DNA of 64,000 nt from Ionaspis alba (lineage: Eukaryota), in assembly GCA_964255285.1 (NCBI GenBank), contig CAXUUL010000004.1:1-64000 (forward strand), read 5' to 3'. Below are positions 33,665 through 38,061 of this stretch, in pieces; the first letter of the stretch is position 1, and every line of letters begins with the position of its first letter. The position numbers and the translations under genes were made by a program. The notes beneath the pieces are model-generated. The model saw nothing but the letters and a program-made list of their open reading frames with translations. It did no database searches and was not told the DNA's origin.

Positions 33665-34653
33665 AGTGTCTCGGAGAATGGCTCTGCTACTCGGTATCCC
33701 CTCAACATTGAACGCAATCGGTATCGAGATTGGATGAATCGCATTGATTGTTTCTCCTGTACATAATTACTTTTTCCCCTCCCTAACTGGCACAATTTTT
33801 ACGAAGGGTTGTCGATCACGATTCCAAATATATCTCACGCACCAGGGCAGAATTTAAGTATTATCGTTCTACAATTAACCGGGACAAACCGTAGTATGGG
33901 CCTGGAGAGGGTTCTGTAGTGTAACGATGGCTCGAACTGTCCTGTTGAGCGGTAAGTCTTGTTTGCGCATGGACACAGGCATGATCTAATAGAACTTTAT
34001 TGTAGCTTGAGCAGTATATGAGATTATCAAGTAGAAGCCGTACTTTAACGTCCTGGAGAGATGTTAGAGCTTCTCAAGCTTACAAGTAGATTAGTATGGG
34101 AAGAGAGAAACATTCGAGAGTTGTTAATAATGTCGTAGGCAGTCGCTGTGGTCAGCCTTAGCTTGCAAGCCTGGAGTTGAGGACCCCGGCCTGGTCAGTA
34201 ATCCTCGATTGCATCAGAGCCCGGAGGTAGAGCGTCTAATCTATTTTGGCCGTATCTTCCTGTCCATTCTTTCCAATTCCTTAACTCCTTGAAATCATTT
34301 TGAGCAACCGCGAAACTTCTTGTCACTGCTCCGCTGGTATATGCTATCCAACATTCTCTGTCCACAAAGGCTAACAGTAAGTCGGATCGTCACCCATAGC
34401 TCCAACAATATTCTCACAGCCGTTTCTAACTCCTTTTGCTCCTAGGAAGATAGCCACCGGTTACTCCGAGCGTTTTCACAACCCTTTCTCTTTCACCGTT
34501 ATCCTCGGAATCCTCATTACCAGACATTCAGCTCGCACGTGTGCGAGCAACGTACGAGTCACCAACATTCACTCCCACGCCGATATTCCGGAGGCGGACA
34601 AAGTGAGCAAGAGGAAGGCGTCCAGTGAAGATCTACGCCCTTCCAAGAAGATC

Positions 34654-37600
34654 ATGATGGTGAGTCGAGAAAGCCGAGCAATCAGACACATGACTCCTGC
34701 CGCTTGCGATCCGTTCGTCTGTTACTCTTCGAGCACTATATATCTGGGAGAACACTCTCAAAGCCTATCCACAGAACCTACAGCTCTTGACTTTGGAGCT
34801 GCGTTGTGCAGAACCTTTTTTCCAACTTCAAGCACTAACGAAACCAAACTAGGACACCAAAATGGAGGTCGATAGTCCTCCGACTAACGGCGCTATGGCA
34901 CCCAAGGACGCGGACATCGACGAGTCGCTCTATAGCCGGCAACTGTACGTGCTCGGTCACGAAGCTATGAAGCGGATGGGCTCTTCGCATGTCTTGATAG
35001 CCGGTATGAGGGGGCTCGGTGTTGAGATCGGTATGTACCCCCATCTGTGTCTAATGCTGTAGTCTTGTGGTGAACATTTACAGCCAAGAATATCGCTCTC
35101 GCCGGCGTCAAATCATTGACACTATGGGATCCTGCACCAGCCGCGCTTCCAGATCTTTCTTCTCAGTTCTTTCTACACCCTGAAGATGTTGGCAAGCCCA
35201 GAGCCGAAGTCACAGCTCCTAGGGTCGCGGAATTGAATGCATATACACCCGTCTCTGTACATCCTTCAAAAAGTCTGACAGCCGATCCCAGCCACCTGGA
35301 CCGTTTCCAAGTCGTTGTTCTCACAGGCGTACCGCTCAAAGACCAAGTGATCATCGCCGACCATTGCCACAAAAACAATATCTTCCTAGTGATCGCCGAT
35401 ATCTATGGGCTGTTTGGCTCTATTTTCACGGACTTTGGCAAAGAGTTTCCTTGTGTGGACCCTACAGGGGAAGCTCCACTGAGCGGTATTGTTGCCGGTA
35501 TCGACGAGGAAGGACTGGTTTCGGCCCTCGATGAGACTCGGCACGGTTTGGAAGACGGGGATCTCGTGACTTTTTCGGAACTTCAGGGCATGGAGAAGCT
35601 GAATGATGCCGAACCGAGGAAAATTACTGTGAAAGGCCCGTACACTTTCTCCATCGGCGACGTTTCAGGACTTGGGAAATACGCACGCGGAGGTTTGTAT
35701 ACTCAAGTCAAGAAACCCAAACTCATCCATTTCGAACCACTGTCGGCACAACTTAAGAAGCCTGAATTGATGATCTCCGACTACGCCAAGTTCGATCGTC
35801 CTCAACAGCTTCACATTGGTATCATGGCCTTGCACACATTCGTGGAACATCACAAAGGGCAGCTCCCGCGCCCGTACAACGACGAGGATGCCACCGATGT
35901 TCTGAAGCTTGCTAAGTCTTTGGCAGGAAATGGTGAAGATAAGGTTGAATTAGACGAGAAGTTGATCAGGGAACTAAGTTACCAGGCTCGTGGTGACCTT
36001 AGTCCAATGGCCGCTTTCTTTGGAGGTCTCGCCGCACAGGAGGTCCTGAAGGCCGTGTCAGGAAAATTCCATCCTGTTGTGCAGTGGCTCTACTTTGACT
36101 CTCTGGAATCGCTCCCAACCTCAATCAGACGCTCGGAAGAGCTGTGTAAACCTCAAAACACGCGCTACGACGGACAAATTGCTGTATTCGGCAAAGAATT
36201 CCAGGAGAAGATCGCCAATACCAAGCAGTTCTTGGTTGGTGCTGGTGCCATTGGCTGCGAGATGTTGAAGACATGGGCAATGATTGGTCTAGCTACTGGA
36301 CCGAATGGGAGGATCAGCGTTACCGATATGGATCAAATAGAGAAGAGCAACTTGAATCGACAGTTCCTCTTTCGACCAAAGGATGTCGGGAAGATCAAGA
36401 GCTCTTGTGCCGCGGAAGCCGTGCAAGCAATGAACCCGGATCTGAAAGGGAAGATTTTCCCACTGACCGATCGAGTGGGCCCAGATACCGAGCACATTTT
36501 CAACGAGGATTTCTGGGAGGGACTCGATGGAGTCACCAATGCCCTGGACAACGTGGACGCGCGGCAATATGTTGACCGACGCTGCGTGTTCTTCCGTAAG
36601 CCTCTGCTAGAAAGCGGGACTCTTGGGACCAAGGGTAATACGCAAGTCGTTCTTCCAAACTTGACGGAGTCCTATTCGAGTTCTCAAGATCCTCCGGAGC
36701 AATCGTTCCCACAGTGCACCTTGAAGAGTTTCCCCAACAAGATTGAGCATACGATAGCGTGGGCCAAGGAGAAATTTCATTCATACTTTGTTGGACCACC
36801 GGAGACGGTCAACTTATACCTGTCGCAGCCAAACTACTTGGAGCAGACACTCAAGCAGTCTGGCAATGAGATCGGAACGCTAGAAAATCTGAGAGATTTT
36901 TTGGTCACAGAGAAACCGGCCAACTTCGAGGACTGTATTGTCTGGGCACGGCTTATGTTCGAGAAAGAATACAACAACGCTATTCGCCAACTACTCTATA
37001 ACTTCCCAAAAGACTCGAACACAGCCACCGGTGTGCCGTTTTGGTCCGGCCCGAAACGTGCTCCTGACCCGTTGAAGTTCGATATTAACAACCCTACCCA
37101 CATAGGATACGTAGTTGCAGCTGCCAATCTTCATGCATTCAACTACGGCATCAAAGGCAATGGAGCCGACAAGAGCCACTACGTCAAAGTCTTGGACACC
37201 ATGACCATACCCGAATTCAACCCAGACCCTAATGTCAAGATTCAAGCTGACGACAAAGAACCTGACCCAAACGCGCAACCTACTGGATCTCGTTTTGATG
37301 ACAACGACGAACTGCAGAAGATCGCTCAGCAATTGCCACCTCCGAAGTCGCTTTCGGGCTTTAAGCTTGAACCCGTCGAGTTTGAGAAGGACGATGATTC
37401 GAACCACCACATCGATTTCATCACTGCAGCTAGCAATCTCCGAGCCGAGAACTATGCAATTGCCCCTGCCGATAGGCACAAGACCAAGTTTATCGCGGGA
37501 AAGATCATTCCTGCCATAGCAACGACCACCGCCCTTGTTACAGGCTTGGTTGTCCTTGAGCTCTATAAGATTATCGACGGTAAGGATGATATCGAGCAAT

Positions 37601-38061
37601 ACAAGAACGGCTTCGTCAACCTCGCTCTGCCCTTCTTTGGCTTCAGCGAACCGATTGCTAGCGCTAAAGGGGAATACATGGGCACGAGTGGAAAAGTGAC
37701 GGTTGACAAAGTGTGGGACCGGTTCGAGCTCGGCAACGTTACCCTCACAGAGTTCCTCGAACACTTTAGGGGACTTGGTCTCGATGTCATGATGATTAGT
37801 TCTGGAGTCAGCTTGCTGTATGCTAGTTTCTACCCACCGAAGAAACTGGCAGATCGTATGGATTTGAAGTGAGTCATCATTTTACGGTGCTTCTCAAACA
37901 TGTGCTAACACTCTCAATATAGACTGGACCAGCTTGTCGAGACCATCAGTCGAAAACCAATTCCCGAGCATCAAAAGAACGTGATCTTCGAGGTCACGGC
38001 AGAGGACCAGAACGGGGAAGATGTAGAGATTCCCTTTGTTCAGGTTAGGGTCAAGGAGTAG
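34654..38061 (+). CDS. UBA1: Ubiquitin-activating enzyme E1
   Basis: [40 protein letters not shown], catalytic [31 protein letters not shown]. Introns 34660-34852, 35031-35083, 37869-37922. A further 5' intron lies at 34377-34445. Confidence 0.96.

Follow-up and report, generated by a model that had tools for sequence, protein, structure and literature searches.

A conserved NLS-like tag before the first AUG of fungal UBA1 suggests a longer E1 isoform initiated at near-cognate codons

UBA1, the gene for the ubiquitin-activating enzyme E1, lies on the plus strand of a 64,000-nucleotide (nt) stretch of DNA from the Lecanoromycete Ionaspis alba (assembly GCA_964255285.1, contig CAXUUL010000004.1, positions 1 to 64,000), hereafter called the window. 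Near-cognate start codons in an ATG-free leader of this gene probably add a tag resembling a nuclear localization signal (NLS) to the enzyme, such that one mRNA would give rise to a tagged, probably nuclear E1 and an untagged, probably cytosolic E1. Judged from the comparison of relatives, most filamentous ascomycetes very probably also make a longer, non-AUG-initiated UBA1. Support for a near-cognate-initiated isoform carrying the tag comes from the conservation of the tag and its reading frame, selection at the protein level, the conservation of start codons and their context, the replacement of the near-cognate codon by AUG in one clade, and the depletion of ATG from the leader. Such an isoform had been proposed in a preliminary description of the window, and the conserved motif, the conserved codons, and the selection found in relatives support that proposal well.

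Conservation of the basic tag

The tag, KRKASSEDLRPSKK, is encoded at positions 34609 to 34650 of the plus strand, directly 5′ of and in frame with the ATG at 34654. It is NLS-like, with two basic clusters 10 residues apart (KRK-x10-KK) and a near-invariant Ser following KRKx, and translation confirmed the position and frame originally assigned to it. The frame of the ATG at 34654 is open stop to stop from 34381 and has no ATG before 34654. Within positions 33900 to 34662, ATGs occur at 33927, 33969, 33981, 34018, 34061, 34096, 34130, 34341, 34654, and 34657. The sole ATG between 34130 and 34654 is that at 34341, which is in a different frame, and the plus-strand leader from 34344 to 34653 is free of ATG. 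On the 5′ side, the frame is closed by the TAA at 34378 to 34380 if a candidate 69-nt leader intron (34377 to 34445, plus strand) is retained and by the TAA at 34372 to 34374 if it is spliced; both stop codons had been anticipated in the preliminary description, along with the lack of an in-frame ATG. This candidate intron is recognized by its GTAAGT, CTAAC, and TAG sequence signals alone and is not needed for the finding of the tag. A search of sequencing runs gave no RNA set for this organism; the one run found, of unstated type, contains every word sampled from the stretch and may be the source of the window.

Relatives were gathered by a scan of JGI metagenome contigs, for which the query was the first 338 residues encoded by exon 3 of the window gene (see below). 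The scan gave 80 loci, 74 of which carry the peptide anchor IDESLYSRQ. The anchor is missing from L021, L024, L073, L077, L079, and L080, and identity is only 30 to 40% in L073, L077, L079, and L080. Classed by the named protein nearest to each, the anchored loci fall in the Dothideomycetes (32), Lecanoromycetes (25), Eurotiomycetes (8), Leotiomycetes (8), and Sordariomycetes (1, locus L042, approximately 95% identical to Colletotrichum). We then asked for the pattern KR[KR]-x(4-34)-[KR][KR]-x(0-3)-M in frame just 5′ of the first ATG, and it matched in 66 of the 74 anchored loci. Six of the misses (L026, L033, L037, L044, L062, and L064) were found by eye to carry a KRQ or KRP variant that reads H-M-T-K-R-Q/P-L-S-E-A-E-A-...-K-K-I/V-M-T, followed by the splice junction (gt). 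An in-frame tag before the first ATG is thus present at 72 of the 74 anchored UBA1 loci, and the remaining two (L005 and L068) have merely 74 and 114 nt of upstream DNA. As the preliminary description had suggested might be checked, the motif is kept in frame and at the amino acid level across the Pezizomycotina. By this comparison, its occurrence is beyond chance.

In relatives, KR[KR] is usually separated from the following pair of basic residues by 10 to 13 residues, and in L017 by far more. The second basic cluster is KKK, KRK, or KKGK/KKAK in some relatives, and the Ser after KR[KR]x is found in at least 90% of the alignment. In two intron-less, transcript-like contigs (L020 and L023), Leu stands where the second basic cluster is otherwise followed by the first Met (..KKVLSAEE.. 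and ..KKLAISS..). These lineages thereby lack the first AUG start, and the next in-frame AUG is located much further downstream.

Public gene models treat this region unevenly. Some models from Teloschistales lichens already include FTIHSHADIP..GKRKAS.EHARPEKRFMMDNNM in frame, and the tag is also present in extended models from Aspergillus, Chaetothyriales, Drepanopeziza, Lachnellula, Chlorociboria, Purpureocillium, Claviceps, and Metarhizium. In Aspergillus, Exophiala, Capronia, Xylona, and most Sordariomycetes, standard models begin at the Met right after the tag, which bears out the earlier expectation that standard annotation misses the extension. Wrong starts or fusions are common among public UBA1 models (e.g., P0056, P0132, P0135, P0142, P0216, P0233, and P0238 to P0241), and several, of 1,362 to 1,472 amino acids, are fused to a neighboring glutathione-S-transferase-like gene (PF13409/PF13410). 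The start of the Aureobasidium pullulans model (MLTLWQD..) is translated intron sequence, as judged by comparison with L032 and L030.

The gene itself, in the window, encodes a product with the full set of E1 domains (Pfam PF00899, PF10585, PF16190, PF16191, and PF09358). The exon 3 product matches fungal E1 proteins with an E value of 0, and its best named relatives are the lichen-forming Lecanoromycetes Lignoscripta and Xylographa (81 to 82% identity). In addition, the N-terminal region of one relative's UBA1 aligns with yeast, Schizosaccharomyces pombe, and human UBA1 chains. All features of the gene are on the plus strand. The first AUG (ATG ATG, 34654 to 34659) is the start of the short isoform of the annotated type and forms the end of exon 1, which reads AAG AAG ATC ATG ATG up to the boundary at 34659 and is followed by gtgagt. 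Intron 1 (34660 to 34852, 193 nt) has the signals GTGAGT...ACTAAC...TAG. Exon 2 (34853 to 35030) contains an additional in-frame ATG at 34862 (MEVDSPP...). Intron 2 (35031 to 35083, 53 nt) is placed such that the join yields the same peptide as in relatives, and exon 3 (35084 to 37872) carries the UBA1 body through the stop codon. Because exons 1 and 2 join at 34659/34853, the leader frame runs into the UBA1 body in frame. Gene models of relatives read KKIMMDSR, RFMMDNNM, and KRVMMDINM across the same junction.

Near-cognate start codons in the leader

The main conserved candidate for a near-cognate start is the GTG at 34603 to 34605 (plus strand, context gacaaaGTGa), and an upstream conserved candidate is the ATT at 34567 to 34569 (plus strand, context caccaacATTc). 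Both had been named in the preliminary description, as had an ACG at 34537, and all three are in frame as it stated. The GTG and ATT are conserved and have a strong Kozak-like context in relatives. The ACG, which is located inside a conserved hairpin (see below), does not belong to the codons that relatives conserve, and we therefore did not treat it as a probable start.

Start codons were counted in 55 unique sequences, taken from the window together with 72 loci. The codon located two (sometimes three) positions before KRK is CTG in 38 sequences, GTG in 4 (L053, L055, L058, and the window), TTG in 2 (L047 and L051), ATG in 5, and another codon in 6. None of the 55 sequences has CTC, CTT, CTA, or TTA at this position. 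As a control, we examined 15 conserved-Leu columns of the gene body, where all six Leu codons are used, CTG makes up 140 of the 630 codons, and no codon exceeds 52% of a column. The near-cognate codons also share a context: all 44 have A at position −3, and 43 have G at +4.

A Cladosporium-like clade has ATG at exactly the position of the CTG, as seen by comparing L030 with L026. This clade comprises the six loci with the KRQ/KRP variant described above. The context of the five ATG cases is weak, C being at −3 and A at +4, whereas the near-cognate codons have a strong one, a pattern suggesting that selection favors leakiness of the upstream start. In L044 and L064, a TAG is present three codons upstream of this ATG. 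Annotated proteins of Cladosporium and Mycosphaerellales begin with M-T-K-R or M-K-R-[KR].

The ATT has A at −3 and usually C at −4, and it is located 9 to 20 codons before KRK (14 codons in the window) and about 12 codons upstream of the codon at the CTG/GTG position. An ATT with A at −3 is found in 31 of the 55 unique sequences, including all 6 that have no CTG, GTG, TTG, or ATG. ATT accounts for 84 of 254 codons in six conserved-Ile control columns, and at a second Ile six codons 3′ of the ATT in Lecanoromycete sequences, ATT, ATA, and ATC are used freely. L031, L035, and L043 have in-frame stops 9 to 10 codons before KRK, leaving an open frame too short for the usual ATT distance, and the sole ATT of L023 has T at −3. 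These four cases indicate that the CTG alone can serve as a start there. In the window only, a predicted pairing joins CACUC, just after the ATT, to the GUGAG of the GTG start (34569 to 34608). This pairing is probably incidental, because relatives with CTG GGN cannot form it.

Selection on the leader was assessed through the nonsynonymous-to-synonymous difference ratio (pN/pS), computed on 17 sequences that align without gaps. Over KRKxS, the indicative ratio is 0.15 in the UBA1 frame versus 2.09 and 1.07 in the shifted frames. For the stretch from the ATT to the CTG, it is 0.64 in frame versus 1.20 and 1.00 in the shifted frames, and the UBA1 frame has a value of 1.04 across the 14 codons that precede the ATT. 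In the codon alignment, Lys is encoded by AAG or AAA and Arg by AGA, AGG, CGA, CGC, or CGG, and length differences are whole codons. By these codon-level measures, the conserved leader segment is coding, and selection acts on the protein. The coding signal begins at the ATT, which suggests that the ATT is used as a start.

To ask whether the leader is scanned by ribosomes, ATGs in any frame were counted upstream of KRK and compared with shuffles of the same sequences. The region from −60 to 0 relative to KRK has 1 ATG (shuffle mean, 34.2), that from −120 to −60 has 4 (shuffle mean, 30.1), and that from −200 to −120 has 6 (shuffle mean, 36.2). ATG is not depleted from −400 to −200, where 103 were observed (shuffle mean, 117). 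From this depletion over the 200 nt before the motif, we conclude that the leader is scanned. In the window, if the candidate 69-nt intron is spliced, the out-of-frame ATG at 34341 would open an upstream open reading frame (uORF) that would end at a TGA near 34626 and overlap both near-cognate starts. The transcript may start downstream of 34341, because the depletion in relatives extends only about 200 nt upstream of KRK. One contig, L030, resembles a mature transcript. It lacks exactly the GTGAGA...CAG intron kept in its relatives L032 and L038, its junction (ATGACT|GACATC) is homologous to that of the window (ATGATG|GACACC), and it extends 147 nt upstream of the CTG, as a spliced transcript would. 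Since this spliced-form contig includes the leader, the extension is present on a mature-transcript-like sequence.

The hairpin that contains the ACG (34531 to 34548, plus strand) has a perfect 7-bp stem, GCTCGCA-CGTG-TGCGAGC, and is located 18 nt before the ATT. An equivalent C-Y-Y-G-C/G-C-R-R-G stem with a loop of 4 to 11 nt occurs in 15 sequences, 11 to 22 nt before the conserved in-frame ATT. Its carriers are Lecanoromycetes-like or Chaetothyriales-like sequences and L020; in full, they are the window, L001, L003, L008, L010, L020, L025, L027, L029, L036, L039, L053, L055, L059, and L061. The stem was not found in the Dothideomycetes-, Leotiomycetes-, or Sordariomycetes-like sequences of the set. 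Pairs were counted with a stem-anchored script in which three of the five core pairs are fixed by the pattern, leaving two core positions that vary, plus the flanking pair, as the sole sources of information. One core pair covaries, with C:G in 4 sequences and T:A in 11. The flanking pair is G:C in 8, C:G in 2, T:G in 3, and mismatched in 2, and its T:G pairs fit only an RNA of the plus strand. RNAalifold predicted no pairs from a MAFFT alignment of the hairpin region, in which the 5′ arm is shifted by one base in several rows. The window hairpin is present in both the minimum free energy and centroid folds; the fold of positions 34515 to 34625 is not more stable than those of shuffled sequences (z = −0.92), and no Rfam family matched within 34000 to 35200 at E values up to 1. 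The hairpin explains why “GLA.GKA” seems conserved in Chaetothyriales even across stop codons. The window hairpin loop forms CACGTG, and a CT-rich block (approximately 34483 to 34512) is located 5′ of the hairpin.

Proposed isoforms and competing explanations

In the mechanism we favor, a minority of scanning ribosomes would start at the GTG at 34603 (CTG in most relatives) or, further upstream, at the ATT at 34567. These starts would add 17 or 29 residues, respectively, including KRK-x10-KK and the conserved Ser. Ribosomes that pass the weak starts would begin at the first AUG at 34654, or at 34862, to make the bulk of the enzyme without the tag. The tagged E1 would probably be nuclear and the untagged E1 probably cytosolic, which is the logic of mammalian UBA1a and UBA1b with a non-AUG start. 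We infer from the comparisons above that initiation at the near-cognate codons takes place, and likewise the ratio of the two isoforms and the role of the tag in driving nuclear import.

The leader might instead remain untranslated, with its conservation coming from RNA or DNA regulatory elements of the 5′ untranslated region or promoter. The covarying hairpin just upstream and the conservation of the ATT at the nucleotide level would suit such elements, but variation in the conserved segment is mostly at third codon positions, Arg codons switch between AGR and CGN, and length changes by whole codons. The low pN/pS over KRKxS in the UBA1 frame only, and the exchange of CTG for ATG in one clade, also speak for translation, and we regard an untranslated leader as highly improbable. 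A second alternative accepts translation and supposes that the tag is read from the AUG of an unrecognized upstream exon or alternative transcript, with no non-AUG start. Several public models do reach the motif through upstream ATGs, and 3 of 50 unique sequences (L019, L046, and L049) have an in-frame ATG in the open frame. However, the other 47 have none, the upstream parts of the public extended models show no mutual similarity beyond the ATT motif, and six sequences (L031, L035, L043, L041, L050, and L078) have in-frame stops 9 to 16 codons before KRK. The frame of the transcript-like L030 is open for 48 codons upstream of the start position and contains no ATG there, and the pN/pS upstream of the ATT shows no sign of a coding exon. 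An upstream AUG would also leave unexplained why CTG and TTG are the sole Leu codons at this position, flanked by A at −3 and G at +4. An exon supplying an AUG, which the preliminary description had listed as a possible refutation, is therefore very unlikely.

The remaining alternative concerns the role of the tag. The extension may be translated from the near-cognate codons while its basic segment serves as a phospho-regulated interaction or stability element, or tunes the enzyme in another way, and is no import signal. KR[KR]xS resembles a site for basophilic kinases of the PKA/AGC type, and the Ser is nearly invariant, with Asp in its place in L009 and L018; the tag may thus be regulated by phosphorylation. 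The shortness of the second basic cluster would also fit a role other than import. On the other hand, two basic clusters at a fixed spacing of 10 to 13 residues are kept across five classes, and the tag is located just N-terminal of a cytosolic-type start, mirroring human UBA1a and UBA1b. We consider a role without import unlikely, and the reading of the tag as an import signal and as a phospho-element are compatible rather than exclusive.

Several observations weigh against the proposal of a near-cognate-initiated, imported isoform. The window tag has the spacing of a bipartite NLS (two basic clusters, 10 to 12 residues apart), but the consensus for such signals has at least three basic residues among five in the second cluster, and the window sequence KKIMM has two of five. 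The GTG of the window is the one near-cognate case that departs from the shared context, with A at +4. A CTG-type codon is absent from 6 of the 55 unique sequences and, by annotated proteins only, from Penicillium angulare and Aspergillus affinis (K-P-G) and from Purpureocillium and Claviceps (Q/R/P-G), so no single start is universal, and AUU is generally a weak initiator. The pN/pS values come from short stretches (5 to 14 codons) of 17 related sequences and are indicative, not exact. Likewise, the loci are related by kinship and were picked through exact peptide words of the window protein, and their counts are not independent samples. Finally, the extension taken by itself has no significant match to the N terminus of human UBA1, and thus homology to the UBA1a NLS is not shown. 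The best stretch between a relative's query and the full-length human chain 9mc4_A starts at query residue 16 and chain residue 9, and queries weighted toward the extension either align from chain residue 29 or give no human match.

A more tentative model, which we consider doubtful, would treat most Pezizomycotina UBA1 leaders as a ladder of AUU, then CUG, GUG, or UUG, and then AUG, preceded by the hairpin in Lecanoromycetes and Chaetothyriales. Such a ladder could act as a rheostat, in which the nuclear share of E1 would follow start codon stringency (eIF1/eIF5, stress, or starvation) and the Ser would be a kinase switch on import. If true, the global translational state would be coupled to nuclear ubiquitylation capacity.

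Related systems and biological meaning

The proposed arrangement has counterparts in known systems. According to PMC11099125, human UBA1 starts at M1 to give UBA1a, which is nuclear, and at M41 to give UBA1b, which is cytoplasmic. The fungal case would involve the same enzyme and one mRNA with two nested in-frame starts, with an N-terminal basic tag in the longer product. However, both mammalian starts are AUG, whereas the fungal upstream start would be GTG, CTG, or TTG and/or ATT in most lineages, and the fungal tag would span 17 to 29 residues rather than 40.

Within the Pezizomycotina, Ivanov et al. (2017, PMC5487733) describe conserved AUU, CUG, and ACG starts for N-terminal extensions of cpc-1. 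As described there, cpc-1 resembles UBA1 in that the frame stays open upstream of the AUG used in annotation, that this frame is under purifying selection, and that AUU and CUG are conserved with A at −3 and G at +4. The cpc-1 extensions bypass a uORF, whereas that of UBA1 would be a localization-type tag; furthermore, the former have in vitro and ribosome-profiling support in that account, whereas the case for the latter comes from sequence comparison. UBA1 and ubiquitin are not mentioned in the text of PMC5487733 or in the supplements examined.

Dual-localized fungal aminoacyl-tRNA synthetases offer a further parallel. According to Wallace et al. (2020, PMC7049704), Cryptococcus ArgRS uses an AUU start in the context cccaccAUU, and weak AUG and near-cognate codons interchange between lineages. 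In these enzymes, a weak start in a strong context adds a targeting peptide and leaky scanning gives the untargeted form, as proposed here for UBA1. Their extensions, as reported there, are mitochondrial presequences, in contrast to the basic, NLS-like tag on E1. A full-text literature search, which lacked most subscription journals, found no paper on a non-AUG-initiated or NLS-bearing fungal UBA1 isoform.

All ubiquitylation depends on E1 as its first enzyme. Most Pezizomycotina models start right after the basic tag, and the annotated proteins leave the supply of nuclear E1 in fungi unexplained. If the proposal is true, thousands of fungal UBA1 models, including those of Aspergillus, Colletotrichum, Aureobasidium, and lichen fungi, would lack a functional isoform. 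Disturbance of the mammalian nuclear/cytosolic E1 split causes VEXAS syndrome, and a split of this type would be kept in fungi by a different start codon device. The UBA1 leader would also be a clean and deeply conserved test case for near-cognate initiation, in which CUG, GUG, UUG, weak-context AUG, and AUU interchange at fixed positions.

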